Shown piece by piece: positions 17,371 through 34,329 of a stretch of DNA of 64,000 nucleotides. How positions within the stretch are numbered: the stretch's first letter is position 1; each line of letters begins with the position of its first letter. The notes beneath the pieces are model-generated. The model saw only the letters and a program-made list of their open reading frames with translations, had not been told where the DNA came from and did not search any database. The stretch comes from a virus, in the IMG/VR virus record IMGVR_UViG_3300016445_000001; one strand, written 5' to 3'. The translations under genes and the position numbers were made by a program.

Positions 17371-17675
17371 ATCGGGCCAATGACCTGCTTGATGTTGACC
17401 AGGTAGTCATGCGCCCCGGTCGGCTGCGGGTAGCCAGCAGGGGGCAGCCCGTTGTAGATGATCGCCCGCGCGGCCATCCCGTCGGCGTAGGCGCTGCGCA
17501 GGAACGTGACATCCTGGGCGGTGAAGCCCATCGCCTCCAGCGTCGGATCGTCCTGGGCGGCCAGCCAGTTCTGGAAGTTGGACATATCATCCATCGCCTG
17601 CCGCCACCGCAGGAAGATGTCCTGGGTGCGGTTCATGATGTTGGGCTGGCTGGCGTTGTCAGCAAACATGATCAT
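17367..17675 (-). CDS. hypothetical protein
   Basis: ATG 17675 at a TGATCATG junction with the fibre gene stop. 102 aa. Confidence 0.55.
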   Translation of the reverse strand: MIMFADNASQPNIMNRTQDIFLRWRQAMDDMSNFQNWLAAQDDPTLEAMGFTAQDVTFLRSAYADGMAARAIIYNGLPPAGYPQPTGAHDYLVNIKQVIGPI

Positions 17676-19987
17676 CCAATCTGCGTGAGGGACATCCGCG
17701 AGCCCGAGAAGATCCGGGTATTGGTGCCCGAGCTGGTGCCCTGCGCCCACCAGAACTGGACCGGGCCGGCCACCGAGCCCATGAACACGGTGCCGACGAT
17801 CTGGAAGCCCCACGCCGGGTTGGCGGTGCCGTTGGTGTAGGCGATCTTGGTGGGCGCGATGTAGGACGTCTCGTTGTAGACCGGGGCGTTGGAGGTGTTC
17901 ATGTAGACCGGGACGAGCCAGTCGATCTCGGTGCCGCTCGGGCTCACCATCGTGAACTTGAGATTGGAGCCGCCGCTGGCCGCGCCGCTGTAAAAGATCA
18001 CCATGTCCAGGTCGTAGATCGCGTTGGCCAGGCAGTTGATCGACAGGTACGGGTCCGCGGCCAGGGTGGTGGTGGACGCCCGCCCGTAGCTGGTCGCGCC
18101 GGACGGCGCGTAGCCCGCCATCGTCATCAGGTTGAGCCCGTTGCCGTAGATCGCTGGCGTGTTGCCGGTCGGCACCGACTGGAGCAGCAGCGCGGAGGCG
18201 ACGTCGGTGGAGAGCGTCTTGGGCGAGGTGAGCTGGAGCTGCTCAGCAGCGGGGGCCTGCACCTGTCCCGGTGCGCTCTCCCCGGCCTGGCCCTGGAGCT
18301 TGATGGTGGTGTTGTTGAACACCTCAAACCCGGCCGGGCACGCCAGGCCCAGCAACGGGTCTGTGCTGGCGAGCCCGCACAGCGAGGCGACCAGGCTGTT
18401 TCCGGTCGGGGTGAAGGTGAGCCGCAGCCATCCCGGCTGCCCGTAGGCCCCGACGTGGCCACCGGACGGGCCGGCCCCGCCACCGCCGCCGTAGCCGCCG
18501 CCGACGTCCCCGGAGTCGTTCAGCGAGCCGCCGCCGAAGCCGTTGCCCCCGGAGCCGCCACCCGGCACGGCGGACGCGCCGTAGCCGGTGTTCGGCGCAT
18601 TGTTGCCAGACGCCGACGGGCCGGCCGAGCCGCCCCCGCCACCGCCGTGACCGGATGGGCCGCCGTTGACCGTCGGCGCATAGCCGAGCCCGCCCGGGTG
18701 GTGGGTGGTGTTGGTCGAGTAGACCGGCGTGGCGTGGCTGCCGGTAGTGAGCCCGCCGCGCCCGCCGTTGGCCACCAGGCTGACCGCATCGCCGGGGAAC
18801 ACGATCTGCCCGCCGTTACCGCCGTTGACGCTGCCGAGGATGCCCTGCCCGCCAGGTGACCCGATCGTGAAGGCGTACCCGCGGCCGGGGGTCACGGCCA
18901 GGCTGGGCTCCAGGCTGTACTCACCGCCGTCACCTCCGCCGGCCTTGGTGGTGGAGGTGCCGTAGGCCCCGCCGCCACCGGGGGCCAGGCCCTCGGTCCG
19001 CACCGTGGTGACGCCGGGCGGGGCGATCCAGGTGCCGCTGGCGTAGAAGGTCTGCGTCGTGGTGCCGCCCTGGCTGTAGGCGTAGATGCCACCCGTGGTC
19101 CCCGAGATCAGCAGGTTGGAGGCGTTGATCGTGGTGCCGTTGATCGTCAGCCCGTTGATCGTCATGCCGTCGATCGCGCCCGCGGCGACCAGCCCGGCGA
19201 CGATCTGGTTGCCCGCGATCAGGTCGGAGGTGATCGAGCTGGCGACGATCGCATTGTGGCCGAACTGGTAGGGCAGCCACGCGGTCCCGTTCCATTGGTT
19301 CATCACGTAGCCGTTGGTCGCGTCGAACCACAGGTCGCCCGGGTTGGGCGCACCGGGCGGGTTGGGTCCGATGGCCACGTTGACGCCACCGGGCGTGGCG
19401 ATCTGGAAGGTGACCATGCCCGGGGTGATCGAGGACGGCGGGATCTGGTCCACCACGCCCTGAGCTATCGCGGACATGTAGTCCGACGTCGGCCCCTGCA
19501 TGCCGGCCTGGTTGGTGACGATGAACAGGACGTAGTAGAGCGTGTCCGGGGTGAGCCCGGTGATCTGCCGGGTGCCCGCGGTGCCCATCAGGAACTGGAG
19601 CGTGGCCGAGCCCGGGATGAAATTGGCCTGGGTCGAGCAGTGGACTTGGACGCCGGCGAAGTCGGCCAGCGGCGGGGAGCCGTCGGACATGTTGCCGTCC
19701 CAGCTCACGTTCAGCCCGTTGACCGCGGGGTAGAGCACCGGGTCCGACGGCTGCGGGGGCGTGCTGCCGGTGAGCTGGAGGTGGGCGAACGTGCCGTCGG
19801 CCTGGAGCCCGAGGATGATCTGCGGGTTGCCGTTGGCGTCGTTGATCGTCAGCGCGCCGTTCTCGATCGAGGACTGGTCGAGCTGGGTGCTGTTCGCGCC
19901 GCGCTCCAGCATGGTGATCCGCCGCTGGAGCGTGGCCAGCTCGCGGGACAGCCGCAGCATCTCGGTGCCCAGGTTCGGTGTCGTCAC
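17672..19987 (-). CDS. minor tail / tail fibre protein with FN3-like and glycine-rich domains
   Basis: 771 aa, GTG overlaps the upstream TGA. N-terminal coiled coil, FN3-like segment (LNVSWDG...LTPDTLYYVLFIV), long Gly-rich tract (GGGGGGSAG...GGYGGGGGAG). Confidence 0.75.
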   Translation of the reverse strand: MTTPNLGTEMLRLSRELATLQRRITMLERGANSTQLDQSSIENGALTINDANGNPQIILGLQADGTFAHLQLTGSTPPQPSDPVLYPAVNGLNVSWDGNMSDGSPPLADFAGVQVHCSTQANFIPGSATLQFLMGTAGTRQITGLTPDTLYYVLFIVTNQAGMQGPTSDYMSAIAQGVVDQIPPSSITPGMVTFQIATPGGVNVAIGPNPPGAPNPGDLWFDATNGYVMNQWNGTAWLPYQFGHNAIVASSITSDLIAGNQIVAGLVAAGAIDGMTINGLTINGTTINASNLLISGTTGGIYAYSQGGTTTQTFYASGTWIAPPGVTTVRTEGLAPGGGGAYGTSTTKAGGGDGGEYSLEPSLAVTPGRGYAFTIGSPGGQGILGSVNGGNGGQIVFPGDAVSLVANGGRGGLTTGSHATPVYSTNTTHHPGGLGYAPTVNGGPSGHGGGGGGSAGPSASGNNAPNTGYGASAVPGGGSGGNGFGGGSLNDSGDVGGGYGGGGGAGPSGGHVGAYGQPGWLRLTFTPTGNSLVASLCGLASTDPLLGLACPAGFEVFNNTTIKLQGQAGESAPGQVQAPAAEQLQLTSPKTLSTDVASALLLQSVPTGNTPAIYGNGLNLMTMAGYAPSGATSYGRASTTTLAADPYLSINCLANAIYDLDMVIFYSGAASGGSNLKFTMVSPSGTEIDWLVPVYMNTSNAPVYNETSYIAPTKIAYTNGTANPAWGFQIVGTVFMGSVAGPVQFWWAQGTSSGTNTRIFSGSRMSLTQIG

Positions 19988-21684
19988 ATCGTCCCCGCCT
20001 GCCCGCTCTGCGCCAGGTAGGTGAAGCTGTCCGACCTGGCGCACGTGAGCGTGATGATGTCCTCCTGCGGGTTCTGGCTCATGGAGGTGATCCGGCACCA
20101 GATCCCGGCGTTGCGCCACCCGGTGGCCATCGTGACCAAAATGTCATCGCCGCACCTGAACGAGCCAAAGGGCGCGTTCGGGTGGTTCTTCACCACCACC
20201 GTCTGCGGCGTGTCGATGGCGATCCGGCTGGTGAGGATCGCCTGCGCCCGGGACTGGAGCCGGGCCTGGGTGCGGATGGTCTGGTCGGTGTAGACGAACA
20301 CCCGGCGCAGCGTGTTGTTGGGCGTGCCGATCTGGGCGCGGACCTGGAGGCTGCCCTGCCCCGCGCCGAGCCCAACCACCTCGTTGGCGTAGACCGAGCC
20401 GTCCCGGCTGCCCTGCACGGGCACCGTGATGTTCTCCCCCTCGGCGAACCGCAGCGACGTCTGCCGGACGCCGATCCGCGGGACGCCGAAGTGCAGCGCG
20501 TGCTTGACGCCCTGCCGGGTGGCGTCGGTCCATGTGTGCTGCTCGTAGAAGTCGAACACCGCCTCGGTGGCGATGTTGCCGATCTCCTGGCCGATGTCTG
20601 TGCTGTTCCACCAGTCGAGGACGAACGGGGTGGGCACGTTGGAGCCCGGCCCGCCCTGGATCACCTTGGTGCCCGCGTTGTGGTCGCCGCGGATCGCCGA
20701 CCCGAGGGTGAACACGTTCTTGCTGATCTTGGAGATCGAGTACCAGTTGTTGCTGTCGGCCAGGTTGACCTGGCTGGAGGTGGTGAATCCGGTGGGGTTG
20801 TTGACGGTGATCGTGGTCGAGCCGTCCCTGGCCCGCACCGCCAGGTTGGTGCTCATGAACTGGTTGGACTGGAGCTGCGCGCCGAGCAGCACGCCCGCCT
20901 TGGTGGCATCGAGGACCAGTCCGATGTTGCCGCCCGGCTGGGCCTGCACCCAGGCCCACAGCATCCGCACCACGTCCAGCGCGTCGATCTGCACCTGGCT
21001 GTAGTTGGAGCCCTCGTAGATGATCCCGTTGGCGTAGCCGACGAATCCGGTGAAGGTCGGCGTCCAGGCCGGCCCGTTGTAGGTGGAGGCGGTGAGGATG
21101 CCGCCGAACTTGATCTCGCTGTTCTCCTCCAGGTAGCACGCGGTCTGCCACTCGGTGGGCAGCGGGTTGCCGGTGGAGTCGAGCAGCTCCCGCCGTGGCG
21201 GCTGCACCTGGCAGGAGAACGTGTCCGGCTGGTCCAGGTTCCAGGTGATGTTGGGCTGCTGGATGGCCCGCAGGTCCCGGGTGATCCACGCGCCGGTGAT
21301 CAGGTTCTGGAGGTGCATCCTCGGCATGGTGGGGTTGATGAACGCCTGCGGCGCGGCGCGGGCGTAGAACGCCGGGGTAGGCGCGGGCGCGGTGCCCTTG
21401 ACCACCAGCAGGCCCTCCCACGCGCCCGCTGCCTCGCGGGTGGCGAGGGCGAACGCCTGGGACACGGTGAAGCTGTAGCCGGGGATGTCATCGACCGCGG
21501 CGGCGGTGTCGAACGTGCTGGGCGTCTCGGCGACCGCCAGGCCCCCGGTGTTCTGGTCATCGAGCGCCGCGGCGTCATCGAACACCTGGATCAGGTTGGG
21601 GCTGGAGACAGCCAGGCCGCCCTGGTCCGACGCTGCCGCGCTGTCGGTCAGCGTGATGTTGTGGTAGCCGCCGCCGTCGGGCAT
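19984..21684 (-). CDS. minor tail protein
   Basis: 566 aa in the tail gene string. Start overlaps the stop of the giant gene. Confidence 0.65.
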   Translation of the reverse strand: MPDGGGYHNITLTDSAAASDQGGLAVSSPNLIQVFDDAAALDDQNTGGLAVAETPSTFDTAAAVDDIPGYSFTVSQAFALATREAAGAWEGLLVVKGTAPAPTPAFYARAAPQAFINPTMPRMHLQNLITGAWITRDLRAIQQPNITWNLDQPDTFSCQVQPPRRELLDSTGNPLPTEWQTACYLEENSEIKFGGILTASTYNGPAWTPTFTGFVGYANGIIYEGSNYSQVQIDALDVVRMLWAWVQAQPGGNIGLVLDATKAGVLLGAQLQSNQFMSTNLAVRARDGSTTITVNNPTGFTTSSQVNLADSNNWYSISKISKNVFTLGSAIRGDHNAGTKVIQGGPGSNVPTPFVLDWWNSTDIGQEIGNIATEAVFDFYEQHTWTDATRQGVKHALHFGVPRIGVRQTSLRFAEGENITVPVQGSRDGSVYANEVVGLGAGQGSLQVRAQIGTPNNTLRRVFVYTDQTIRTQARLQSRAQAILTSRIAIDTPQTVVVKNHPNAPFGSFRCGDDILVTMATGWRNAGIWCRITSMSQNPQEDIITLTCARSDSFTYLAQSGQAGTM

Positions 21685-24600
21685 CAGTACACCGGCTGCT
21701 GCCCGACGAACGCCCGGACCGTCTCAGTCGCGGTGTCCACCTCGGACCACACGTCGTAGGTCTGGCCCGCCTGCAACGGCACCAGGCCCCCGCTGCTGGC
21801 CGGGCCAACCGAGCACTGCGCGATGAAGCCCTTGTAACGCCCGGTGGGCGGCAGCCACACGGCGTCAAACCAGGTGACCGGCTCGGCGGGGGCCTGCTCG
21901 TTCATCGAGGACAGCGGCACGGCGAACCGCACCGGGTAGGGGGCAACCGTCGGATCGTCTACCTCGCCGCCGAGATCGGAGTCCCACTTGACGTTGATCA
22001 TCTGCTGGCTGACAGCAGCGATCGGCTTGAAGGCGGCCATGATCACCCTCCACTGTGCCTGGGCAAGGACGGCAGCCCAGCGGGGAGGGCTGCTAACAGC
22101 CTGCCACCGGGATGCGGCCGGTGCCACGGTCCAGGTGCGCAGAGCTGGGCGCGCGAGCAGCGCGGTGCCGCCGCTGCCCGCCCGCCAGGCCGGGCTGTCC
22201 CCGTTGGGGTGCCAGGCGGGCTCTCCCGCGCCGGGCTCGGCGGCGGGCTCGGCGGGCTCGGCGTGCCAGCGTGCGCCCGCTGCTGTGGCGCTCCACCGGG
22301 CCGGGCCGGGGGTGGCCCGCCAAGCCAGCACCCCCGGCCCGGCTGTCCATGTGGGCGATGGGACGAGCGCGGCCGGGACGGCTGCGAAATCGTCCACCGC
22401 GGCGGCCTGGTCGCCGCTGAACGTGTCCAGCGCGGCCTGCACCACAAGGCTGTCACTGGCTGCTGCACGGTCCTGACTGCCTGTCACTGCCGACGCGCTG
22501 AGAGCCTCTGTGACGGCTCCGGTGTCGGGGAGGTGCGGCTGTGCCGAGATGGCCTCTGTGAGCGCCTCAGCCGCCGTGCCCGCGTCCGCCAGGCCCAGTT
22601 GCGCGGAGACGCCCTCCGCGTCCGCGGCTGCCGCGGAATCGGCCAGGGCGACCGCCTCGCCGACGGCGACCGCGATACCGTCGGCAGCACCAGCCAGGTC
22701 GGGGACGCCCGTGGAGGCGGCCGGCACCAGTGTCTCCGCAACAGCCCCCATGTCGGCGGCCTGGCTGGCCACACCGACCCCGAGGTTGGCCACGCCCGAG
22801 CCCGCGTCCGGGTAGGCCACCTGAGCGCCGACCACCACCGTGAGAGAATCGGCGGCACCGGCCTGGTCGCCGGCAGGTGCCGTTACCGCTGCTGTCGCTG
22901 CATCTGTCGCGCCCGCCTGCTCGGCCGCTGGGACGGTAGCTGCCACGGCTAGCAGGTCGGTTGCCCCCGGCTGATCAGCCAGCGTCACCGCAGCGCCGAC
23001 CACGACGCTGAGGGTGTCGGCAGCGCCAGCCTGGTCGGTGGCCCCGGACGCCACTACCGCCGTGAGGGCGTCCGCCGCGGCGGCCTGGTCACCGGCCGGG
23101 CTGGACACGCCCGCTGCTAGCTGCTCGCCAGCTCCTGCCTGTTCGGCGAAAGCGACCGCCTCGCCCACCACCGGGCTGATAGCGTCTGCGGCACTGCCCT
23201 GGTCGGTGAGGCTGACCGTGGCCGTCGGCGCAAGCAGGTCGGCCGCGGCCCCCGCATCACCGGCCGGGGCAGCTACGGTCACGGTGCTAGCGTCGGTAGC
23301 TGCTGCGCTGTCGCCGAGCCCCACCGGAGCGCCCAGTGCGAGCCCGTCGGCCGCAGCACCAGCGTCCGGCAGCGGGAGCGTCCGGGCTGGCGTGTTCAGC
23401 GCGTCCAGCGCCGTCCCCGCCTCGGCCAGCGGCGTGGCAGCAGACACGGCCGGTGTATCTGCTGCCGCCGCGGAGTCCACGAGCGCCACGGTGACTGTGA
23501 CCGCGAGCTGCTCGGCAGCAGCGGCCAGCTCGGGCAGCGGCGCGGCGACCGCGGTGAGCTGAGCGGAGATCCCGTCGGCGGCTGCGGCCCGCTCACCCAC
23601 CGGCACAGCAGCAGAGACGCCCTGCTGATCGGCCCCGGCTGCGGTGTCGGGAAGTGCGGCGGCCACAGTGACCGCGAGCTGCTCGGCCGCGCCCGCCTGG
23701 TCACCCAGCAGGGTGTTGCTGCCCTGCGCAACGGCCAGGGTGTCGGCACCGCCCGCCGTCTCGGGCAGGCCCAGCACCTCGGCGGGCAGCGGCAGCGCGT
23801 CCGCGCCGGCCGCCTGCTCGGGCAGCGGTACGCTGGCGCTCGCCACCGACGCCTCTGCGCTTGCGCCAGCCTCGGCGAGCTGCGCGGTAGCGTTCGCCGA
23901 CCTGCTGTCTGCCGCCGCAGCGGCGTCGGTAACAGCCAGGTTGGCCGCCACCACCGTGGCCTCTGCTGCCGCAGCAGCATCTGCGAGAGTAACCGCGGCA
24001 GTGACGGCCACCTGGTCGGCCCCGGCCGCCTGGTCGGGCACCGGCATCGCCTGGGCCGGGACGGCGAGCGCGTCGGCACCGGCCGCGGCATCGGCCGGGA
24101 CCAGCGTCTGCGCCGGGACGGCGAGGACGTCAGTGGCACCGCCGGCGTCGGCCGGGGTGATCACCGTGAGCGGCGCGGCCAGCGGGAACGTGTAGACCAC
24201 CACGTACCACTGGGCGCTGGTGATCGTGGCGGCGAAGTTCTGCGCCACGCCGTTGGTGCCCGTGCCGAGCTGGTCGAACGCCGCGCTGTTGTAGGGGTTG
24301 ACCCCGGAGTGGTAGGTGGTCACCAGGCTGAACGGCGCGGTGATCGCCGGTGCGCCGCCCGCGTTGGCGTTGGCCAGCAGCGCCACGCACATCTCACTAT
24401 CGGCGCGCGGGGTGAAGCCCCGGGCCGGCGCGGTGCTGCTGCCGTTGCCGATCGAGCTGATGATGTCCACGGCCCCGACGCCGGGCACGTCGATCAGCAG
24501 GATCTCCACGTTGCCGGTGGAGGCGGCCGACGTCGCGGTGAGCGTGTCCGAGGTGCCCAGCGCCGCCGTCGGCCCGCCGCCAGGCCCGCCCGTGGCACCC

Positions 24601-27341
24601 GGCGACCTAAACCAGTAGGACATCGGCACGGCGACCTGCGCCGCGGTGTCCTGGGTGTAGACGTTGCCCTTGCTGTCGGTCAGCGCCGAGATCGTGCAGG
24701 AGGTGTTCTGCGTGGTGATCAGCACCAGCAGCGTGTCCCCGGCACCGGTGGGCGTGCTGACCGCGGCGGTGCGGCTGGAGCCCGCGCCGGTGGTGAGCCC
24801 GGTGGCCGCCTGGTAAGGCGCGATGCTGACCGAGAGCGCCTCGGCCGCGGCGGCCTGGTCGGCCTGGGCGACCGGCTGCGCGCCGCTGACCGCCTCCGCG
24901 TCGGCGGCTGCCGCCTGCTCGGCGAGTGCCAGCGTGACCGCCTGCGTGGCCGCCTCCACCGCGGCGGCGCGCTCGGCGACCGGGACGGCAGCGGAGATCC
25001 CCTCCTGTTCCGCAGCTCCTGCCTGGTCGGCGAGCGCCACGGTCTGGCCGACCACAACAGACAGCGCCTCCACCGCGGCAGCCCGGTCCGGCACGGGGAC
25101 GGCAGCGGATGCCGCGAGCTGCTCAGCAGCTCCTGCCTGCTCGGGCAGCGGAACAGCAGCAGCGACCCCCTGCTGATCCGCTGCGGCGGCGGCGTCGGCC
25201 TGGGCCACGACGGTCGGCGGCACGCCGGTGGTGAAGGTGATCACGCCGCCGTCGTTGGCCGCGGCGGCGGACACGCTGCCCGAGAACGTCTGCGAGGCGG
25301 TGCTGGCCCCCGGCAGGATGTACGCCGTGGTCAGGACCGGGGCTGTGCTCTCGTTCTGGATCAGGGTCCAAGACAGCCCGGTGGGCAGGTTGGAGCCCGC
25401 GAAGTTGACCGCGCCGACGCAGATTTCACCCGGCGCAGACAGCGCGCCGGTCGCCAGCGAGAACGTGGAGCTGCTGGAGCTGCCCGCCCCGGCCGGGTGC
25501 TGGTCCACCGCGGCCATCTTGGGGATACCGAGGACCGTCACCCGGATGGTCTGCGTGACCGCTGGCGTGACCGTGATGCTGTCGGAGGTGGTGAGCGGCG
25601 TCGGGCTGGCCCCGGTGTAGGCGAAGCACGCCGGCCGGATGACGTGCGAGGCGACGTCCACCGTGTAGGCGTTGAGCTTGGTGTCGGTCACCGTGCTGAC
25701 CACCGCGGTGGCCGAGCCGCTGCCGACGCAGACCAGCACCCCATCGCCGGGGGTCAGGGCGGCGGTGATCGGGACGGCCAGCGATGCGACGTTGCCCGAG
25801 CTGGCAGCCTGGCCGAGGATGTAGGGCGCACCCGCCACGGCGAGCTGCTCGGCCGCGGCTGCGGCGTCGGCCTGGGCCACCGGCACCTGCGGGGTGGGCG
25901 AGAAGAACCACGCGCCGAGCCGGTAGGCCCCGGTGTTCTGGTTGGAGGTGGCCTGCTGGTTGACGCCCGCCGTGCCGGGGCCGAGCGCCTGCGCGCTCAC
26001 CAGCAGGTAGGGGCTGTTGGTGCCGGGCTGCTCGGTGAGCACCATCAGCGGCTGCATCGGCGCGTTGATCTCGCAGAATCCGGTGGCGCTGGAGGAGAAT
26101 CCCGCCACCGCCACCATCAGCTCACCGTCGGCGGTGGGCGCAGTGGCGGTGGAGGCACCGGTGGGGCCGGTCGCGCCGACCACGGCGACCGACTTGTCCA
26201 GCGGCCCGTACCAGGACGGCACGTCGAACAGCGAGGCGTAGACGATCGTGTTGCCGCCGCCGACCACCACGGTGAGGGTGATCACGTCGGAGATGCCCAG
26301 CGCCGCGGACGGGCCGCCGCCTGGGCCACCGGTCGCGCCGTCACAGCGCCAGCCGTAGATGATCGGCGTGTTGGTGCTGTTCCAGTAGAAGTCCTGCACC
26401 CAGGTGTTGCCCTGTGTGTCAGTGATCGAGCTGATCGTCAGGGGGCTGGCGTTCGCCTCCGCGGCGATCAGCAGCGTGTCCCCCGCATTGGTGGCCTGGG
26501 ACGGGCTGAACGTCCGGGCGGTGGTGGTGTCGGCCGGGCCAAGCCGGGTGCCGCACAGGACGGGCAGGGCGTAGTCGGCCATGTCCACCGCGGCGGCGCG
26601 GTCGGCCAGCGGGAGCGTCTTGGCCGTGATCGCCAGCGCGTCGGCAGCACCGGCCCGGTCCGCCTCAGCGACCGCGGAGGTGGGGGACTGGAACAGCCAC
26701 ACGCCCAGCGACTGGGTGGCCGCGGTGCCGACGGTGACGGTGAAGGTCTGCGCCACGCCGCCCGTGCCGGTGCCGAGCTGCACCCAGCCCAGCGACGTCT
26801 CGTTGCCGGTGCCCGCGTAGGCGTCGGCCGCTGCTGCCCCGGTGGGCGCGGTGAAGGTGGGGGCACCGCCTGCTGACTGGCCGGTGTAGGCGATGATCGC
26901 CAGCTCGTTGTCCGCCGCGGGCGTGCCGCTCACTGAGTTAGTCAGCGCCGCGGTGCCCAGGTGGACCGGCGTTACCGCCTTGTCGAACGCGCCCGCGCCG
27001 GTGAGCTTGGCCCCCTGGAGCACGTAGACGGCGCTGGTCGAGCTGGTGGTGACCGTGATCGTGTCGGTGGTGGTGAGCGCGGCGGTTGCGCCGCCGCCCG
27101 ATCCCCCGGTGGCTCCCGGGGAGCGGAACATGTACGTCTGCGGGCTGGTCCCCTGGCTGGCGTCCAGCGTGTAGACGTTGCCCTTGGAGTCAGTGCAGGC
27201 GGTGGCTGAGCCGCTGTTGCTGTTGTTGGTGACCAGCACCAACAGCGTGTCGCCCGCGGCCGACGCCGTGGCAACCGTCATCGCCCGGGACGTGACGGTG
27301 CCAGTGACGGTCGCGCTGGCAATCAGTACCGGCGCGGGCAC
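21684..27341 (-). CDS. giant (1885 aa) Ala-rich modular tail-associated protein
   Basis: Four paralogous modules of about 200 aa (GDTLLVLVTNN..., GDTLLIAAEAN..., GDGVLVCVGSG..., GDTLLVLITTQ...). Separated by degenerate Ala/Asp/Glu repeat tracts, then Trp-periodic repeats and a C-terminal globular part. Confidence 0.75.
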   Translation of the reverse strand: MPAPVLIASATVTGTVTSRAMTVATASAAGDTLLVLVTNNSNSGSATACTDSKGNVYTLDASQGTSPQTYMFRSPGATGGSGGGATAALTTTDTITVTTSSTSAVYVLQGAKLTGAGAFDKAVTPVHLGTAALTNSVSGTPAADNELAIIAYTGQSAGGAPTFTAPTGAAAADAYAGTGNETSLGWVQLGTGTGGVAQTFTVTVGTAATQSLGVWLFQSPTSAVAEADRAGAADALAITAKTLPLADRAAAVDMADYALPVLCGTRLGPADTTTARTFSPSQATNAGDTLLIAAEANASPLTISSITDTQGNTWVQDFYWNSTNTPIIYGWRCDGATGGPGGGPSAALGISDVITLTVVVGGGNTIVYASLFDVPSWYGPLDKSVAVVGATGPTGASTATAPTADGELMVAVAGFSSSATGFCEINAPMQPLMVLTEQPGTNSPYLLVSAQALGPGTAGVNQQATSNQNTGAYRLGAWFFSPTPQVPVAQADAAAAAEQLAVAGAPYILGQAASSGNVASLAVPITAALTPGDGVLVCVGSGSATAVVSTVTDTKLNAYTVDVASHVIRPACFAYTGASPTPLTTSDSITVTPAVTQTIRVTVLGIPKMAAVDQHPAGAGSSSSSTFSLATGALSAPGEICVGAVNFAGSNLPTGLSWTLIQNESTAPVLTTAYILPGASTASQTFSGSVSAAAANDGGVITFTTGVPPTVVAQADAAAAADQQGVAAAVPLPEQAGAAEQLAASAAVPVPDRAAAVEALSVVVGQTVALADQAGAAEQEGISAAVPVAERAAAVEAATQAVTLALAEQAAAADAEAVSGAQPVAQADQAAAAEALSVSIAPYQAATGLTTGAGSSRTAAVSTPTGAGDTLLVLITTQNTSCTISALTDSKGNVYTQDTAAQVAVPMSYWFRSPGATGGPGGGPTAALGTSDTLTATSAASTGNVEILLIDVPGVGAVDIISSIGNGSSTAPARGFTPRADSEMCVALLANANAGGAPAITAPFSLVTTYHSGVNPYNSAAFDQLGTGTNGVAQNFAATITSAQWYVVVYTFPLAAPLTVITPADAGGATDVLAVPAQTLVPADAAAGADALAVPAQAMPVPDQAAGADQVAVTAAVTLADAAAAAEATVVAANLAVTDAAAAADSRSANATAQLAEAGASAEASVASASVPLPEQAAGADALPLPAEVLGLPETAGGADTLAVAQGSNTLLGDQAGAAEQLAVTVAAALPDTAAGADQQGVSAAVPVGERAAAADGISAQLTAVAAPLPELAAAAEQLAVTVTVALVDSAAAADTPAVSAATPLAEAGTALDALNTPARTLPLPDAGAAADGLALGAPVGLGDSAAATDASTVTVAAPAGDAGAAADLLAPTATVSLTDQGSAADAISPVVGEAVAFAEQAGAGEQLAAGVSSPAGDQAAAADALTAVVASGATDQAGAADTLSVVVGAAVTLADQPGATDLLAVAATVPAAEQAGATDAATAAVTAPAGDQAGAADSLTVVVGAQVAYPDAGSGVANLGVGVASQAADMGAVAETLVPAASTGVPDLAGAADGIAVAVGEAVALADSAAAADAEGVSAQLGLADAGTAAEALTEAISAQPHLPDTGAVTEALSASAVTGSQDRAAASDSLVVQAALDTFSGDQAAAVDDFAAVPAALVPSPTWTAGPGVLAWRATPGPARWSATAAGARWHAEPAEPAAEPGAGEPAWHPNGDSPAWRAGSGGTALLARPALRTWTVAPAASRWQAVSSPPRWAAVLAQAQWRVIMAAFKPIAAVSQQMINVKWDSDLGGEVDDPTVAPYPVRFAVPLSSMNEQAPAEPVTWFDAVWLPPTGRYKGFIAQCSVGPASSGGLVPLQAGQTYDVWSEVDTATETVRAFVGQQPVY

Positions 27342-27354: not shown

Positions 27355-28050
27355 CTAGCTGACGGTGCCGGACCCCGAGGGGTAGCCGAAGCTGATCGTC
27401 TCGGTTGCCGTCCAGGTCTGGCCGCTGGCCTTGGTGCCCTGCGAGCTGACACCGCGGTTGAAGAACGTGCCGCCCGTGGTGGCGTTGGACACGCTGTCTG
27501 CGGTGCCTGCGTCAGTGCCGAACTCCTGCCAGGCGAAGTTGGCGACCGCCGTGCCGAACACCGAGCTGAACACCAGCGTCGGTGGCGTGGCCGCGGTGCT
27601 GATCGTCGGGGCTCCGCTGACCAGCTTGAAGTAGCTGGTCGTGCTCGCCGCGCCGGTGTCGCCGACCAGGGTGGTCTGGCTGAACGCCGCCGCGGTGGTG
27701 GAGGTGCCGACGCCGATCCGGCCGTTGGTCGCGCTGAACTTGGGCGACATGGTGGTGCCCGCCACGCCGCCGAGCAGGGCTATCCACCCGTTCTGCACGA
27801 TCATGTTGCAGTCGTAGTCGGTGGTGTCACCCCAGCCCGGGGTGGGCGTCACGCCGACGGCGGCGAACCGCCTGGGCGTGAGCAGGGTGCCCGGCGCGTA
27901 GCGCGCCGCCGCGTAGCGGGTCTGGTCCTCATCGAACCGCTGCACCCGGAAATCGGTGTGGACGCCAGCGGCGTCTGCGTGCGGGGCTCCGACCCCGACC
28001 AGCAGATGCTCGCTCGCGCTCGCGGAGTCTGGCCCTCTCGACATGATCAT
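27355..28050 (-). CDS. minor tail protein (function unknown)
   Basis: ATG 28050/28044 at GAAAGGAAATGATCATG. 231 aa, Thr/Ser/Gly-rich. Confidence 0.6.
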   Translation of the reverse strand: MIMSRGPDSASASEHLLVGVGAPHADAAGVHTDFRVQRFDEDQTRYAAARYAPGTLLTPRRFAAVGVTPTPGWGDTTDYDCNMIVQNGWIALLGGVAGTTMSPKFSATNGRIGVGTSTTAAAFSQTTLVGDTGAASTTSYFKLVSGAPTISTAATPPTLVFSSVFGTAVANFAWQEFGTDAGTADSVSNATTGGTFFNRGVSSQGTKASGQTWTATETISFGYPSGSGTVS

Positions 28051-28060: not shown

Positions 28061-29026
28061 TTATGCGACCGCTGCCTGCTGCTGGAAGGTGGCGACAACG
28101 CTGGTCACGGTCCCCTCGTCGGCGCTCATGACGCCCGTCTGAGTGGCCCGCGTCTGTGCGAACTGGAAGGTCTGTGTCGTGCCGCGGATCGAGGCGGGGA
28201 TGGCGACCGACCCGCCGCCGCCCGTGGTGTGCCGCCAGGGGCCTTGCGCGGACTGGATCGAGATCAGCGTCTGCGGGAAGCTCACCGTCGGCGCGGTCAC
28301 CGAGCTGCCGATCACCGGCCAGATGTTGGACCGCGCCCAGCCGGACACCCACAGGATCTCGTTGACCAGCCAGAGGATGATCATCCTGGTGGCCCAGCTC
28401 GGGATCGGCACCGCCCAGGTGGCACCGGGCGGCCACTGGATGGTTGAGCCCGAGGTGTTCCAGTTGGTGGCGCTGGCCGGGCCGGCGGCTGCCATCTGCA
28501 CGGTCTGCGTCTGCGGGATGGACACCTGGCGGACGTCGTTGATCATCGCCTGGGTGATCGCCGAGGTGGACGCAGGGACGTCGATCCGGGCCAGGGGGAT
28601 GCAGCTCTGCCCGGCCGGCGGAACGGTCGAGCCCGCGGCCACGCCGCTGATCACCCGGGGGAACAGGATCTGCCCGCTGGCCGGGTTGCCCCACGGGGAG
28701 CCGCTCCAGGTCGGGTCCTCCGCGCGGACCACCACCATGTCCGAGCGCGGGCTGCCCGCCGTGGCGGCGATCGTCAGCGTGGTGTCGTTGCCGACGTTCC
28801 ACCCGTGGTAGCTGCCCTGGTAGGGGGCCTCCGCTCCTGATACCACCACCTGGCCGGGGGTGATGACGATCCCGGCCGTCGGCGTCGGCGTGGTGGCCTG
28901 CACCTGGCAGTCCAGGTGGCCGACCACGCCCTGCGCGCCCATCGTCGCGGCGCTCAGCATCATCCGGGCGTAGGCGGCATCGACCATGTTGCCGTCCACG
29001 GCCCAAACAGCAGTTTGAAAAGTCAT
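28061..29026 (-). CDS. minor tail protein
   Basis: 321 aa. First tail gene after the Dit gene and the HNH insertion. Confidence 0.65.
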   Translation of the reverse strand: MTFQTAVWAVDGNMVDAAYARMMLSAATMGAQGVVGHLDCQVQATTPTPTAGIVITPGQVVVSGAEAPYQGSYHGWNVGNDTTLTIAATAGSPRSDMVVVRAEDPTWSGSPWGNPASGQILFPRVISGVAAGSTVPPAGQSCIPLARIDVPASTSAITQAMINDVRQVSIPQTQTVQMAAAGPASATNWNTSGSTIQWPPGATWAVPIPSWATRMIILWLVNEILWVSGWARSNIWPVIGSSVTAPTVSFPQTLISIQSAQGPWRHTTGGGGSVAIPASIRGTTQTFQFAQTRATQTGVMSADEGTVTSVVATFQQQAAVA

Positions 29027-29058: not shown

Positions 29059-29556
29059 ATGTACTATACTGCCCACGTGAGGGAAAGATGGAAGCCGGTC
29101 AACGGTCACAACAGGCGCTATGAGATCAGCAACTTCGGGCGCGTGCGCTCCTGGGTTGCTAAGGGGGTTGACCTGCCGCTCATCATGACCACCCAGCACG
29201 ACCAGCGAGGCAGGCCCCAGGTCAACCTGAGCATCGCCGGGCGGCCCAAGACCATCCGGGTCGCGCTGCTGGTCGCCCGGCACTTCCTGCCACCCCCCGG
29301 CCCTGGCCTGGAGGTCTGCCACAACGACGGCGACCAGTGGAACTGCCGGGCCGACAACCTCCGGTACGACACACACAGCGCCAACATCCTCGATGCAGTG
29401 CGGCACGGAACGCACCGGAGCGTTAGCAGGGACACCTGCCTCAAGAAGAACCACCCGCTGGACGGGCGGAAGACTGATTGGAAGACCGGCCGGATCGTCC
29501 GGTACTGCAAGACGTGCAACCGGAAGCGGGAAGCAGCGCGGCGCGCAACTAGCTGA
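29059..29556 (+). CDS. free-standing HNH homing endonuclease (NUMOD4-like N-terminus plus HNH_3-type core)
   Basis: ERWKPVNGHNRRYEISNFGRVRS (NUMOD4 pattern) and VCHNDGDQWNCRADNLRYDTHSAN (HNH). Opposite strand to the tail operon. Visibly AT-richer 5' flank. Confidence 0.85.
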   Translation: MYYTAHVRERWKPVNGHNRRYEISNFGRVRSWVAKGVDLPLIMTTQHDQRGRPQVNLSIAGRPKTIRVALLVARHFLPPPGPGLEVCHNDGDQWNCRADNLRYDTHSANILDAVRHGTHRSVSRDTCLKKNHPLDGRKTDWKTGRIVRYCKTCNRKREAARRATS

Positions 29557-29557
29557 C

Positions 29558-30490
29558 CTAGGCATAACTTCCCCCGATCGCTGGCCAGGCGTTGCGCCAC
29601 TTGATCTGGCAGGTGGCCGTGCCGGTGTAGTCGGTGCCGGTGAGGCGGACCACGGTCGCGCCCTGCGGCAGTCCGAGGGAGATCATCGGGCTGCCGTTCA
29701 GCAGCCCGGCCACGCTGGCGGTGCCGATCAGCGCGGTGCGCGCCCACGGCCGGGTGTCGAGCACCAGGGACTGGCCAGCAGGGAGCACCCCCTGGTAGCT
29801 GATGGCGATGGCGGTGTTGACGTAGGCGATGCCGGGGAAGCTGATCGGCCCGTTGAAGGTGATCACCGGCCAGGTGGCGATCGGCCCGCTGTTGACCAGC
29901 GCGTTCTGCTGGTAGTTCAGGTAGGCGGACGCCCACTGGAACGGCGGGGTGACCGGGAACGTGAAGGTGCCCAGGTAGGACGGCACACTGGTGAGGGTGA
30001 GGATGCTCTCGGTGTCGGCGTACCAGTTGCAGTCGGCGGCCTGGAACTGGGCGCTGAACGGGACCGCGCCCTGGTTGGCGGTGCCGTAGGTGGGCTGGAT
30101 CTTGCGCCCGCGCCCGTAAGCCACCCGGACCACGTTGGACACCGGGTAGTAGGCGCGGAGCTTCTGCATCTGCCCGTTGACCATCCGGGCGGCCGGGTCG
30201 AGCCACTTGCCGGCTAGCTGGCTGAACGCATCGAGCGCGGCCTTGCCGTTGGCGTTGGCGTAGGCGACCCCGGTCTGCGTGACCACCATCCCGGGCAGGG
30301 TGTCCACACCGAACAGCACGCCGTCATGCCCGACTACCGGGGTGTCCTGGGTGGTCATCGAGCCGGTGTCGGCGAGGGTGTTCTGCACCAGGCAGGTGGT
30401 GCCGTAGCCGTAGACCACGGTGTTCGGGTCACCGCCTGGCATGTCGGTGCCGATGCTGTACTGGCCGAGGGCCAGCACCGGGTCAGCCAT
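29558..30490 (-). CDS. distal tail protein (Dit) candidate
   Basis: 310 aa, immediately downstream of the tape measure gene with overlapping start and stop. Confidence 0.6.
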   Translation of the reverse strand: MADPVLALGQYSIGTDMPGGDPNTVVYGYGTTCLVQNTLADTGSMTTQDTPVVGHDGVLFGVDTLPGMVVTQTGVAYANANGKAALDAFSQLAGKWLDPAARMVNGQMQKLRAYYPVSNVVRVAYGRGRKIQPTYGTANQGAVPFSAQFQAADCNWYADTESILTLTSVPSYLGTFTFPVTPPFQWASAYLNYQQNALVNSGPIATWPVITFNGPISFPGIAYVNTAIAISYQGVLPAGQSLVLDTRPWARTALIGTASVAGLLNGSPMISLGLPQGATVVRLTGTDYTGTATCQIKWRNAWPAIGGSYA

Positions 30491-33400
30491 CAGCTCACCC
30501 CCGTGTATGCCTGCTGCCGGCTCACCCGCAGCATCCAGCTCAGCTCTTGCAGCGCCTGGGTGACGGTGGTGCCCTCGGGCAGCGTCAGGTGGACGTCACG
30601 CAGCAGCGAGTGCCCGCCACCGCCCTGCTTGGAGAGCTGGTGGGCGGCCTCGGCCATCGCCACGAACGCGGAGGACTGCACCGGGTTGAGCACGGCCTCG
30701 GGCCGGCCGGTGGCGTTGGCGTTGACGTTGAGCCCCGGCAGCAGCCACCCGCCGCTGTCCATGAACCGCTGGTAGGCCCCGGAGGTGTAGGTGGTCCAGG
30801 GGGAGAACCCGCCGGCCGCGCGCCACTTGGCCACCGCGGCGCGGGCGTTGTTGAGCGGGTTGAGCAGCGCCTGGTTGATGCCGAACTGCGGCTCGCTGTT
30901 GCCCGGGGTGATCTGCCACAGCCCCCAGCCGGTGGTGGCGTAGGGCTGCCCCTGCTGGATCGCGCCGGGCCGGAACCCGGCCTCGGCACCGGTGATCGCC
31001 GCGGCGATGTGGGCGACCATCCCGCCAGGCCCGCCGGCCTGCATCCAGTAGCCCTCGATCTGCCGCAGGTTCTGCGGGCCGAGCCCAACACCGCCGAGCC
31101 CGCCTGGCGGGATGCCAGTGCCCATCAGCGGCATGCCGTGCAGCGGCATCAGCGTCGGCCCCTTGACGCCCTCGGGGCCGCCCTGGCTGATCACCTGGGT
31201 GGGGGTGCGGATGATCGCCACGTGGCCAGGCGGCGGGCCGCCGCCCGCGGAGACGTAGAACGCCAGGCCGCCCGGCACCGGGCCGGACCGCTTGGCCCAG
31301 GCGTATTGCGCCTCGGACGTCCGCGGCGGGTGGATGCCGAAGTGGTTGTAGACGTCCTCCACGAACCCCGAGCAGTCATCGCCGCTCAGTGAGGTGCCGC
31401 CCCACGTGTAGGGGATCTTGCCGAGGTAGCTCATGGCGAACTTGACGATCGCGTTGCCGTCGGCACCCATCCCGCCGTGCCCGATCAGCCACTTGACCGC
31501 ATCGGCGACCGCGGTCTTGCCCATCCCCATCAGCATTTGGGCCATCTCGGCGGTGGCCCCGCCGACCAGGTTGGTGCCGAGCATGTTCATGATCGCGTTG
31601 GTCAGCGCGGCGGTGTTGCCGGTGGCGACCGCGGCGGTGATCTTGCCGACGTCCTCGGCCTTGTGCCACAGCCCGGAGAAGAAATGCCCGATGCCGCCGA
31701 GCAGGCCCGGCCCGTGCTGGCCCACGTTGTGCGCCGGCCGCTGGGCGTACCGGGCGGACGGGTCGAGCGCGCCGAACCGGCCGCCGGCCTGGTAGCCCGG
31801 CACGCCGACCGCGCGGAACACGTCGGCGAGCATGCCGCTGTGCTCCTTGGACACCACCGTCTCGCCGGACTCCAGCAGCGCCGGGTGCCGGTCGCCGCCG
31901 CCGTAGCCGGGGAGCCGCCCGCCGCGGGCCAGGCCCATCGGGTGGACCGCGCCGATCGGCCTGCCGAGCCCGAGCTTGGAGGTGATCCAGTCGAATGCTG
32001 AGATCAGCCCGTCCAGCACGTGGTCAATCACGAACTTGACCGGGCTGGCTACCACGTTCTCGATGTCCTGCCAGTGCTGCCCGATCCAGCGGACCGCCGT
32101 GCCGAACGCATTGGGCAGATCCTGGGTGAACACCTGCTCCATCGGCTGCACGATGTTGTTGTCGATGAAGTTCCACGCCGCCTGAGCTGCGCCGGTGATG
32201 TCATCCCACGCCTGTTTCCAGTGGTCGCGCACGAACTCGACCGCCAGCCGGATCAGCGTCAGGCCGGGCACCAGCCACTGCCCCCACCCGTGGGTGAGGA
32301 AGTTCCAGGCGTCCATCGTCCAGCTCTTGATGTCGTTCCACACCTGGTGCCAGTGGGTGGACAGGAAGCCGATCACGGCGATCAGCCCGAGCACCGCGGT
32401 GCCTACCGGGTCGATGGCTGCCGCCACGGCGATCAGCACCGGGATCAGCAGGTGGAAGTGAGCCATCCAGGTGACGACAGCAGCGACTACCCCGACCACC
32501 CAGCCGATCAGCTTGGCGAGCAGGACCACCAGCGGGGCGAGGGCATCGAGGATCGCCACCAGGGCGGTGGCGAGCCCGGCCGCGAACATCTGCGCCAGCA
32601 CGTTGATCACGGGCACGAGCTGCTGGACGATCTTGAGGAGCGGAGGCAGCAGCGCCTCGGTGACCTTGACCAGCGGCGGGACCAGCGCCGACACCACCCG
32701 GACCAAGATCATCACAGCGCCGTCAGCGAGGGCACCGATCATCCGCATCAGCGGCGGGATGAACGGCGCGAGCTGGGTCACCAGGGCATTGATCAGGTTG
32801 GCCAGCGGCCGGGCCAGGGACTCCAGGGCATCCGCAAAGACGTTCCAGATGGTGCCGCTGTTCTCCAGCACGTTGAACACGCTGGCCAGCACCTTGGCCA
32901 GGGCACCAAAGGTGGGGGCAAGATCGGCGATCAGGTGGGCGACCGGGATCAGCATGGACATCAGATCCTGCAAGATCGCCCCGGCCAGCTCGGCGAGGAT
33001 CTTGCCCACCAGCAGCAGCGGCGGCTCAAGGATCTTGATGGTCTGCGCAAAGGCGACGATCACCGGGGCCAGCGCCCGCGCCATGATCGCGCCTACCCGG
33101 CCGAGGAGGACCAGGATGCCGCCGAGCGCCTGGAACAGCGCCTTGAGAACGGTCATCGAGGGACCGACGGCAGGGGCCATCACGGCGAAGAACCGCCCGA
33201 TGGACTGGCCGAGCCCGCCCAGGATTCCGGCGAACTCGTGCATAAAGGGCAGGCTGGCCTTGGTGATCGTGGTCAGCCCCGGCAGGATGTTCTTGACCAG
33301 CAGCAGCAGCCCGGTGGTGAGCTGAGCGAACCCCGGCCCGCTGATCCTGGCCAGGTTGCCCAGCAGCGGCAGGATGGCCCGGATGCCACCGGTCAGCGCC

Positions 33401-34329
33401 CGCACAAACGGCTCGACCACGGTCATGGACTGCTGGAAGAACTTGCGCAGCGGGCCGAACAGGGACTCGACCATCGGGACGATCTGGCGCAGCGGCTTGG
33501 CCAGCATCGGCAGCAGGGAGCCGGTGAAGTTCTGCCAGTCGTTTTGCAGCCCGGTGATCGAGCGGAACACCGACGCGCCACCCGGCGCGGACCGCTGGGC
33601 GAACTGCATCGCGCCCTGCATCTGCCGCTGGGCCTGCTGGCGCTGCTGCGGGGTGACCGCCATCTGCATGGCGTTCTGTGCCTGCTGGTACGCCTGGAGC
33701 GCCGGCCCGAGGTTCTGGCTGATCGCCTGGCTGCCCAGGAACCCGGCACCCGCCAGCCCGGCCGCGCCGCCGCCCGCCACGCCGAGCACGCCGCCGAGCG
33801 CGGGCAGCAGGGAGCTGGCCGCTGCGCCGCCGCCGATCCACATCGCCGGGGTGGCCCCCATGCCCAGGAACCCAGGACCGGCCGCGCTGGCGGTCTGCCC
33901 GGCCGCCCCGGGAGCCGCGCCAGCGGCCCCGCCGCCTCCTCCTCCTCCGAACAGGCCGCCGATCATGCCGGGGATGCCCGCTGCCCCGCGCAGCATGCCG
34001 CTGCCGCCGAGCATGCCGGCCAGGACACCGCCGCGGCGGCGCACGTCGTTGGTGAGCTGCTCGTCCAGGCGGCGGTAGGAGTCGCGGATACGGCCGAACG
34101 CCGACTCGTCCACCCGCGGGGTGATCTTCACCTCGCGCTCGTGGGCTACCTCGTCCAGCTTGGCGTCAGCGGCGGCGACGTCGCCGGGCGGGACTTCCGG
34201 CTCGATCTTGGCGGTGCGTGTCTTGGCCGCAGCGTCACCGGCCGTGGAGGCAGCCTTGAGCTTACGGTAGAACTCGCTGTCCTCCAGGTCGAGGCGAGCG
34301 ACGATGGTGCCTGCGTCAAAGGCCATCAC
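30490..34329 (-). CDS. tape measure protein with NlpC/P60-like and lytic transglycosylase-like C-terminal domains
   Basis: 1279 aa with a central run of hydrophobic/helical repeats. YTWGGTSLSGDDCSGFV...GHVAI (NlpC/P60) and GWGLWQITPGN (SLT-like). Confidence 0.9.
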   Translation of the reverse strand: MMAFDAGTIVARLDLEDSEFYRKLKAASTAGDAAAKTRTAKIEPEVPPGDVAAADAKLDEVAHEREVKITPRVDESAFGRIRDSYRRLDEQLTNDVRRRGGVLAGMLGGSGMLRGAAGIPGMIGGLFGGGGGGGAAGAAPGAAGQTASAAGPGFLGMGATPAMWIGGGAAASSLLPALGGVLGVAGGGAAGLAGAGFLGSQAISQNLGPALQAYQQAQNAMQMAVTPQQRQQAQRQMQGAMQFAQRSAPGGASVFRSITGLQNDWQNFTGSLLPMLAKPLRQIVPMVESLFGPLRKFFQQSMTVVEPFVRALTGGIRAILPLLGNLARISGPGFAQLTTGLLLLVKNILPGLTTITKASLPFMHEFAGILGGLGQSIGRFFAVMAPAVGPSMTVLKALFQALGGILVLLGRVGAIMARALAPVIVAFAQTIKILEPPLLLVGKILAELAGAILQDLMSMLIPVAHLIADLAPTFGALAKVLASVFNVLENSGTIWNVFADALESLARPLANLINALVTQLAPFIPPLMRMIGALADGAVMILVRVVSALVPPLVKVTEALLPPLLKIVQQLVPVINVLAQMFAAGLATALVAILDALAPLVVLLAKLIGWVVGVVAAVVTWMAHFHLLIPVLIAVAAAIDPVGTAVLGLIAVIGFLSTHWHQVWNDIKSWTMDAWNFLTHGWGQWLVPGLTLIRLAVEFVRDHWKQAWDDITGAAQAAWNFIDNNIVQPMEQVFTQDLPNAFGTAVRWIGQHWQDIENVVASPVKFVIDHVLDGLISAFDWITSKLGLGRPIGAVHPMGLARGGRLPGYGGGDRHPALLESGETVVSKEHSGMLADVFRAVGVPGYQAGGRFGALDPSARYAQRPAHNVGQHGPGLLGGIGHFFSGLWHKAEDVGKITAAVATGNTAALTNAIMNMLGTNLVGGATAEMAQMLMGMGKTAVADAVKWLIGHGGMGADGNAIVKFAMSYLGKIPYTWGGTSLSGDDCSGFVEDVYNHFGIHPPRTSEAQYAWAKRSGPVPGGLAFYVSAGGGPPPGHVAIIRTPTQVISQGGPEGVKGPTLMPLHGMPLMGTGIPPGGLGGVGLGPQNLRQIEGYWMQAGGPGGMVAHIAAAITGAEAGFRPGAIQQGQPYATTGWGLWQITPGNSEPQFGINQALLNPLNNARAAVAKWRAAGGFSPWTTYTSGAYQRFMDSGGWLLPGLNVNANATGRPEAVLNPVQSSAFVAMAEAAHQLSKQGGGGHSLLRDVHLTLPEGTTVTQALQELSWMLRVSRQQAYTGVS

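Follow-up and report, generated by a model that had tools for sequence, protein, structure and literature searches.

The 64,000-nucleotide viral DNA of IMG/VR record IMGVR_UViG_3300016445_000001 (the whole stretch is referred to as the window) contains an open reading frame (ORF) that encodes an alanine-rich protein of 1885 residues within a block of tail genes. The protein consists of four related head modules, tracts of an acidic 18-residue repeat, a tryptophan repeat, and a conserved C-terminal domain. The gene is an extreme variant of a known design, the modular adhesion protein of the siphophage tail tip, and includes three uncharacterised elements. We consider it somewhat probable, at approximately 0.55, that the product is an accessory fibre of the baseplate, which is anchored by its C-terminus and carries exchangeable glycan-binding heads on acidic spacers. 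We favour this reading because the constant C-terminal part of the protein co-occurs with baseplate genes, the heads of related proteins vary and include a lectin and a glycosidase, and the head module has been added to Dit-like and phrog_1885 proteins.

Domain architecture of the 1885-residue protein

The ORF can be divided into the following segments, the last two of which form the C-terminal 230 residues of the protein. The preliminary description of the sequence overlooked these residues, which comprise a Trp repeat followed by a conserved predicted β-sandwich.

21684..27341 (-): whole ORF, 1885 aa, 182 kDa, pI about 4.05, GTG start
26655..27341 (-): head module 1, aa 1-229, with a GATGGSGGG loop
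26526..26654 (-): linker 1, aa 230-272, two to three units of the 18-aa type; variant P0001 lacks 16 aa here
25866..26525 (-): head module 2, aa 273-492, with a GATGGPGGG loop
25791..25865 (-): linker 2, aa 493-517, a single unit of the repeat (VAQADAAAAAEQLAV)
25197..25790 (-): head module 3, aa 518-715, the most divergent copy, without the Gly-rich loop
24783..25196 (-): short stalk tract, aa 716-853, approximately 7-8 units, each 18-20 aa long; site of a 36-aa deletion in variants P0001 and P0177
24150..24782 (-): head module 4, aa 854-1064, 14-strand all-β AlphaFold2 model
22377..24149 (-): long stalk tract, aa 1065-1655, about 32 acidic Ala-rich units of 18-21 aa
22050..22376 (-): region of Trp-bearing nonapeptides, aa 1656-1764, in which ten Trp recur strictly every 9 or 18 residues
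21687..22049 (-): conserved C-terminal domain, aa 1765-1885, predicted β-sandwich

The four paralogous modules that had been recognised in the preliminary description were used to build a hidden Markov model, which recovered exactly four copies in the protein, with envelopes at residues 16-229, 273-492, 518-715, and 854-1064. The pairwise identity of the copies is 25-44%. The GD(T/G)(L/V)L strand and the TD(S/T)(K/Q)(G/L)N motif are present in all of them, and the GATGG(S/P)GGG loop is present in modules 1, 2, and 4 and missing from module 3, in agreement with the preliminary description. Module 1 starts at approximately residue 3, and the protein does not have an N-terminal adaptor. The AlphaFold2 model of module 4, calculated from a 24-sequence alignment, is all-β with 14 strands and has a predicted local distance difference test (pLDDT) value of 91.8 and a predicted template modelling (TM) score of 0.88. 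The modules are predicted to be compact autonomous β-sandwich domains of about 210 residues.

The structure prediction and fold-library search that had been suggested as a check of the modules provided this confident model, no significant counterpart in the PDB, and 36 predicted viral structures in BFVD that match at E < 1e-3 with TMq of 0.55-0.73. Many of the matching proteins are "minor tail proteins" of phages infecting Mycobacterium (Zenon, Shauna1, Gaia, TChen, Hawkeye), Gordonia (GodonK, Beyoncage), and Microbacterium (ValentiniPuff). One of the matches bears a CenC-like carbohydrate-binding annotation, and a second is listed as a glycerophosphodiesterase. The actinophage proteins are predicted to have the same β-sandwich fold of about 200 residues (probability 1.0), usually at their N-termini, but their sequence identity to the window module is only 12-19%. 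The best local match of the module in the PDB, a chain of 172-173 residues from the Tuc2009 baseplate tripod (5e7t), had a probability of 0.9 but a TM-score of 0.28, and was rejected as too weak.

Searches of Pfam and PHROGs with 24 copies of the module identified no family, and a PDB search with the 24-sequence profile provided nothing meaningful (E > 0.5). Judged by Pfam, the PDB profile search, and Foldseek against the PDB, the module does not belong to a recognised family of carbohydrate-binding modules (CBMs) or lectins. The module profile nevertheless had 1392 matches at E ≤ 1e-3, 215 of them at E ≤ 1e-10, among 1.84 billion cluster representatives. In 102 of the 137 representatives that were the best profile matches with a near-complete module, the module is located within the first 60 residues; one copy is present in 111 of these proteins, two in 21, three in four, and four in one. 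The module is thus common at the N-termini of phage tail proteins and has no solved structure, and four copies of it are the extreme. The preliminary description had not recognised the module, which agrees with the lack of a Pfam, PHROG, or PDB counterpart, but a module found in 1392 clusters is neither exotic nor rare. Searching the rest of the window for the module or the C-terminal domain revealed no additional copy.

The tracts of degenerate repeats were placed correctly in the preliminary description (aa 716-853 and 1065-1655), but the repeating unit is 18 residues long, with a range of 18-21, and not 12-14 residues. The spacing of D-x-A-G-A-A-D/E motifs is exactly 18 residues in 22 of 41 cases and 18-21 residues in 36 of 41. 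The residue autocorrelation at lag 18 is 0.256, compared with 0.160 ± 0.013 in 2000 shuffles (z = 7.2), and additional peaks are located at lags 38 (z = 5.1) and 56 (z = 8.0). A 9-residue sub-period of the stalk repeat gave no signal (z = 0.1 at lag 9). The consensus of the unit, drawn from 170 units in nine family members, is D-A-A-G/A-A-A-D/E-x-L-x-V-x-A/V-x-V-P-L-A, in which two acidic residues around a Gly/Ala turn are followed by alternating hydrophobic residues, with Pro at position 16. The protein contains about 42 units, 32 of them in the single run of residues 1065-1655, where 70 Asp and Glu residues are accompanied by 4 Lys and Arg residues. Alanine makes up 24% of the whole protein, as its earlier designation as Ala-rich implied.

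The nonapeptides of RTX β-rolls (PF00353) were rejected because there was no Pfam match at E ≤ 1, the unit lacks GGxG, and the 9-residue sub-period is missing. Collagen-like Gly-X-Y repeats were ruled out by the sequence and the unit profile, which do not contain Gly at every third residue. A PDB sequence search with the repeat tract found no relative, and no paper on Ala-rich repeats in minor tail proteins turned up in a search of the literature.

The Trp repeat contains ten Trp residues over 100 residues with a consensus of about xxxxxxARW, and its period is half of the 18-residue period of the stalk. In the window protein, the region is about twice as long as in relatives because of a 50-residue insertion rich in Pro, Glu, and Ala. 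The AlphaFold2 model of the C-terminal domain is a β-sandwich with pLDDT of 63-87, and 35 columns of the domain are invariant among 11 relatives. Pfam and PHROGs searches with the 11 C-terminal domains identified no family, and a PDB sequence and profile search provided nothing meaningful. The best Foldseek matches of the domain in the PDB were the N-terminal sandwich of transglutaminase, β-GRP/GNBP3 (CBM39), CBM21, and FN3, none of which were significant (E = 0.017-0.09). The whole 1885-residue protein also matches no family in Pfam (at E ≤ 1) or PHROGs. An Ig-like decoration domain (Big_2, FN3, I-set) was rejected because no Pfam family was found for the protein, the modules, or the C-terminal domain. 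Two loci (L031, 98-439, and L032, 2426-2863) encode the C-terminal domain as a separate ORF of about 145 residues, positioned directly after a 467-residue ORF in another frame. These ORFs could be a genuine separate version of the domain or parts of frameshifted genes.

Relatives, baseplate fusions, and proposed polarity of the protein

When the C-terminal domain and the repeat tract were used as queries, approximately 30 loci or proteins were obtained, nearly all of them from soil metagenomes. The gene order of tape measure protein (TMP), Dit, minor tail protein mtp321, p229-like protein, the large gene, phrog_1885-like protein, and fibre-like protein is kept in the approximately 20 loci with sufficient flanking sequence, the core proteins of which are 50-74% identical. 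The relatives of the large protein have in common a repeat stalk of 16-32 units, a Trp repeat with 5-8 Trp residues, and the C-terminal domain with 45-75% identity. Their N-terminal regions vary and contain no, one, or two modules; four are present in the window protein only. Some of the N-termini contain a LamG-like insert or other β-rich domains. Of the proteins found through the repeat tract, P0194 contains a Laminin_G_3 domain (aa 44-147) and P0198 a GH26 domain (aa 298-400), in both cases upstream of the stalk. In one relative, the stalk is replaced by a Pro/Arg-rich linker. The window protein is the longest, with 1885 residues compared with 515-1605 in other full-length members. Classical fibres have a conserved N-terminus and a variable C-terminus, and the reverse is seen among the relatives.

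The module has been grafted onto core baseplate proteins of the Dit/Tal type in other phages. In P0014 and P0017, it is fused N-terminally to a phrog_5577 protein, to whose family the Dit-like gene of the window belongs, and in P0005, two modules are joined N-terminally to a phrog_1885 protein, the family of the gene downstream of the large ORF. Because of these fusions, we regard the module as a plug-in decoration of baseplate cores.

Additional differences were observed among the loci. The phrog_1885-type genes downstream of the large gene in L001 (14231-16564), L006, L008, L011, and L013 encode an extra 200-500 N-terminal residues, which are absent from the 566-residue protein of the window and are not members of the head-module family. 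The tail-tip proteins in the group to which the window phage belongs seem to exchange such N-terminal additions. Upstream of its large gene, L001 has a 194-residue gene for which the window contains no equivalent. The name of trimeric autotransporter adhesin, given to P0016 by JGI, was rejected, since P0016 contains no Pfam family and the tail-operon context argues against it.

Based on the domain architecture and the comparison of relatives, we propose that the ORF product is an accessory protein of the virion tail tip (baseplate) of an uncultured siphophage with a genome of about 84 kb and 70% GC. The chain would resemble beads on a string, with four heads in the N-terminal 1064 residues and stalk segments between and after them. 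The Trp repeat and the C-terminal sandwich may oligomerise and dock the protein on the conserved baseplate, and the repeat tracts would be spacers that keep the heads off the tail tip and apart from one another. Binding of the heads to cell-wall glycopolymers would result in multivalent, reversible adsorption. The heads may be swapped or duplicated in frame by recombination at the flanking repeats, which is plausible because the same repeat motif flanks every head. Such recombination is suggested by the variable head sets of the relatives, which it would explain. The antireceptor of Streptococcus thermophilus phages, reportedly described by Duplessis and Moineau in 2001, is said to contain variable regions between collagen-like repeats. 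As in the window protein, short repeats would bracket binding modules there and permit in-frame exchange, whereas the window repeats are 18-residue acidic Ala-rich units and not Gly-X-Y.

The preliminary description had suggested a long fibre or a scaffold that binds the host surface through multiple heads. A scaffold with several heads is favoured by the position of the gene, the baseplate fusions, and the LamG and GH26 heads of relatives; this evidence is circumstantial, and the module itself is not unusual. Several points weigh against the anchored accessory fibre. Its orientation would be the reverse of that known from classical tail fibres, and the presence of the protein in virions is putative. 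The designation of the heads as glycan-binding comes entirely from their position and fusion partners, because the module has no solved structure and no Pfam or PHROG family. The comparison of the module 4 model with the PDB using Foldseek identified no significant match (best E = 0.01, TM-score ≤ 0.31). In the AlphaFold2 model of residues 1436-1885, the stalk has pLDDT of about 40 and is drawn as long strands with short turns, and the Trp region has pLDDT of 25-30. We make no claim about the fold of the stalk or the Trp region because the pLDDT is only 25-45. The weak likeness of the predicted C-terminal sandwich to CBM21, CBM39, and FN3 may fit a distal binding tip equally well.

A distal position of the C-terminus is assumed in the alternative that survives best, a fibre of classical polarity, which we regard as possible but unlikely. 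The N-terminus would be proximal to the tail, the repeats and Trp nonapeptides would form a trimeric shaft of the triple β-spiral or β-helix type, the C-terminal sandwich would be a distal knob that nucleates trimerisation, binds a conserved receptor, or both, and the modules would be lateral binders. A repetitive shaft followed by a compact C-terminal domain is the usual layout of fibres, including those of adenovirus, reovirus, and phages. The triple β-spiral repeat of adenovirus and reovirus is about 15-17 residues long, and the triple β-helices of phages have repeats of 8-9 residues. The stalk units are similarly short and degenerate, and their alternating hydrophobic residues at positions 9, 11, 13, 15, and 17, together with the turn positions Pro16 and Gly4, are compatible with β-spiral-type repeats. 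The strict 9-residue register of Trp suggests a regular stacked core, and stacked β-structures would be compatible with either register (9 or 18 residues). The weak likeness of the C-terminal domain to CBM21, CBM39, and FN3 sandwiches points in the same direction. However, the repeats have no sequence or model match among fibre shafts, the two acidic residues per unit and the richness in Ala are foreign to them, and the large ORF matches no known fibre family or fibre repeat in Pfam, PHROGs, or the PDB. Furthermore, a conserved N-terminal anchor is missing: no part of the family varies more than the N-terminus, and the window protein opens directly with a module. In the fusion proteins, the module lies at the periphery of the Dit-like or phrog_1885 cores, and the part of the large protein that is conserved alongside the baseplate genes is the C-terminus.

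Head modules are dispensable, since members of the family without a module exist, and this would be expected if the protein were a virion decoration that does not recognise a receptor. Such a decoration may adhere to soil polysaccharides, biofilm, or hyphal sheaths and raise encounter rates; alternatively, the protein may be a non-structural accessory protein directed at the cell wall. The very acidic, low-complexity character of the protein, its many repeated binding-type modules, and the lack of a recognisable receptor-binding or enzymatic domain in Pfam and PHROGs are consistent with these possibilities. Nevertheless, the gene occupies a strictly conserved position in the baseplate block and is translationally coupled to the next tail gene, and adhesion devices typically carry heads like those of the relatives (LamG, GH26, and the Dit-fused module), which makes this explanation rather improbable.

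The C-terminally anchored accessory fibre can also be formulated in a more far-reaching way, which is doubtful. The 18-residue acidic repeat and the in-phase Trp nonapeptide would constitute an undescribed fibrous fold, for example a metal-stabilised β-solenoid or an intertwined β-helix. It would form a C-terminally anchored stalk of tunable length that bears a new, structurally unsolved family of binding domains one after another, with four on each chain and a higher number on an oligomer, and with the repeats as recombination joints. The result would be a cassette-type adhesion fibre of reversed polarity in soil actinophages.

Integrity of the gene and variation of its length

The frame from 21684 to 27341 on the minus strand is uninterrupted over 1885 codons, as had been described, and its G+C content at third codon positions (GC3) is of the coding type, 0.88 overall and 0.92-0.97 in the modules. 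The GC content of the window is about 70%. An antisense ORF of 855 codons (24309-26876) has a GC3 of only 0.66 and simply mirrors the frame of the large ORF. The GTG start at 27341 is located 14 nt past the upstream stop, and it is supported by the alignment of the first residues of the protein (PAPVLIASATVTG) with the segments preceding modules 3 and 4 (APYILGQAASSG, APYQAATGLTTG). The TGA stop and the ATG of the next gene have the A in common (TGATG). Public assemblies (ENA, JGI, Logan) list the identical 1885-residue product in 158 blocks, on contigs of up to 83.7 kb. Cluster members of the same length occur on 93 and 110 contigs, and the identical product was called on more than 200 independent metagenome contigs with a length of approximately 80 kb. 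This recurrence across independent assemblies excludes a sequencing error or frameshift, which the preliminary description had named as a possible flaw. Long spurious ORFs are common in high-GC DNA and a few deviant alleles occur in one sample, but an artefact of repeat mis-assembly, the joining of neighbouring genes, or a frame that is open by chance is effectively refuted by the identical product on more than 200 contigs, the coding-type GC3, the homologues of the same architecture with 45-75% identity, and DNA repeats that, at 60-80% alike, are too diverged for assembly collapse.

The idea that the repeats are a substrate for length variation holds across the family, in which the comparison of related phages revealed 16-42 units, but is weakly supported within the population. 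The spacings of the repeat units in the DNA are multiples of 54 nt, and the sole array detectable by Tandem Repeats Finder (TRF) is 114 bp × 1.8 with 77% identity in the short stalk tract. The repeats are poor substrates for slippage because the DNA units are only 60-80% alike, and the same divergence, observed with TRF and a repeat finder, rules out a recent expansion at the DNA level.

Variants P0001 and P0177 lack residues 769-804 (36 residues, two units). P0001 additionally lacks residues 233-248 (16 residues), differs elsewhere by only 3 substitutions in about 930 residues, and was not located on any contig. Both variants originate from one read set, SRR6516164. The same read set yields P0176, with an in-frame deletion of about 40 residues within module 2 (approximately residues 322-363) that removes the GATGGPGGG loop. 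The P0176 allele is either real microdiversity in the sample or assembly noise, and an assembly error is therefore also possible for P0001 and P0177. Other length variants in the cluster are due to start-codon choice, truncation, or a frameshifted end.

Genomic context and known adhesion devices

The annotation of the neighbouring genes with PHROGs and Pfam bears out the tail-operon setting given in the preliminary description. The order on the same strand is tail tube, TMP, Dit-like protein, mtp321, p229, the large ORF, phrog_1885 protein, fibre-like protein, and endolysin, which places the large ORF in the tail block, 3' of TMP and Dit and 5' of the lysis genes.

30490..34329 (-): tape measure protein, matches at least 15 TMP PHROGs; NlpC/P60 (aa 973-1048) and SLT_3 (aa 1104-1180)
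29558..30490 (-): Dit-like distal tail protein, phrog_5577 and phrog_33
28061..29026 (-): minor tail protein (mtp321), phrog_25212, 58-72% conserved in relatives
27355..28044 (-): 229-aa protein (p229), phrog_23653, adjoins the large ORF upstream
19984..21684 (-): 566-aa minor tail protein, phrog_1885, start overlaps the stop of the large ORF
17672..19987 (-): 771-aa protein, weak matches to tail-fibre PHROGs

A homologue of the Dit-like protein weakly matches SPP1_Dit, and PDB searches with three of the neighbouring proteins provided nothing meaningful. The assignment of the large ORF as a tape measure protein was rejected, because the separate gene at 30490-34329 fits this role and the large ORF matches no TMP PHROG. 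The TMP contains two cell-wall hydrolase motifs, an NlpC/P60 peptidase and a lysozyme-like SLT_3. Two overlapping ORFs of 160 and 213 residues located just upstream of the TMP gene (34326-35059, minus strand), neither of which has a Pfam match, are probably tail assembly chaperones with a programmed frameshift. A gene for a 165-residue homing endonuclease with NUMOD4 and HNH_3 domains is positioned on the opposite strand between the Dit-like and phrog_25212 genes (29059-29556, plus strand). It looks like a mobile insertion, since in L001 and other relatives the flanking tail genes abut directly. Another HNH endonuclease ORF (HNH_5/HNH; 15320-15781, plus strand) is located beside the lysis genes, on the strand opposite to the structural operon.

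The genome of the phage is approximately 80-84 kb long and has been recovered in near-identical form from very many samples, for example as the 83,679-bp contig k141_2722681 of ENA ERZ27254850 (L003). No GenBank phage has a terminase that is more than 35% identical to its own. We consider the lineage uncultured, and the DNA has no match in GenBank phages. Searches of 50,697 GenBank phages with the large ORF, and likewise with module 4, by megablast and tblastn found no match. A related 83.7-kb contig was binned in a metagenome-assembled genome of Streptosporangiaceae from soil, which is a weak hint of the host. A soil actinobacterium is the probable host.

In lactococcal and streptococcal siphophages, CBMs are found as decorations on Dit, Tal, and further proteins (PMC6669499, PMC7533335, PMC7291167). 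The window protein resembles these adhesion devices (evolved Dit, Tal extensions, BppA/NPS) in that β-sandwich modules, predicted in the window protein, are present on tail-tip proteins, often in multiple copies, with coding positions after TMP/Dit and ahead of the lysis genes. The module also moves between carriers, which here are the Dit-like, phrog_1885-like, and stalk proteins. In contrast, the window module does not belong to a recognised CBM family, and its binding to glycans is putative. Moreover, the window protein is a separate chain of 1885 residues with four heads on acidic spacers and not an insertion in Dit or Tal.

According to excerpts of a study of mycobacteriophages, solvent-exposed CBM- and Ig-like baseplate accessory proteins (BAPs) bind cell-wall glycans (PMC13252515). 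The phages covered by the excerpts (BppU of Claus, CFP and gp60 of Corndog, BAPs of Mysterious; Douge, Bxb1) share with the window phage a host group that is, for the latter, probably actinobacterial. The arrangement that the excerpts report, a conserved TTP-Dit-hub core ringed by diverse exposed Ig- or CBM-like accessory proteins, is also alike. The window protein is much larger than the BAPs in these excerpts, which mention no repeat stalk, and it has no sequence relationship to them and no fold relationship to the solved structures that are available.

Current concepts of phage adsorption are not overturned by the protein described here. It would be an extreme and well-replicated case of siphophages of Gram-positive hosts adsorbing through arrays of exchangeable glycan-binding modules, and it would extend this principle to uncultured soil actinophages. 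Three of its building blocks are worth solving: the predicted β-sandwich of about 210 residues, which occurs in more than 1000 protein clusters, including many SEA-PHAGES "minor tail proteins", and has no solved structure; the 18-residue acidic stalk repeat; and the unit formed by the Trp nonapeptides and the C-terminal domain. If the C-terminal anchoring and cassette exchange are true, they would provide a simple rule for predicting or re-engineering the host range in the group to which the window phage belongs.

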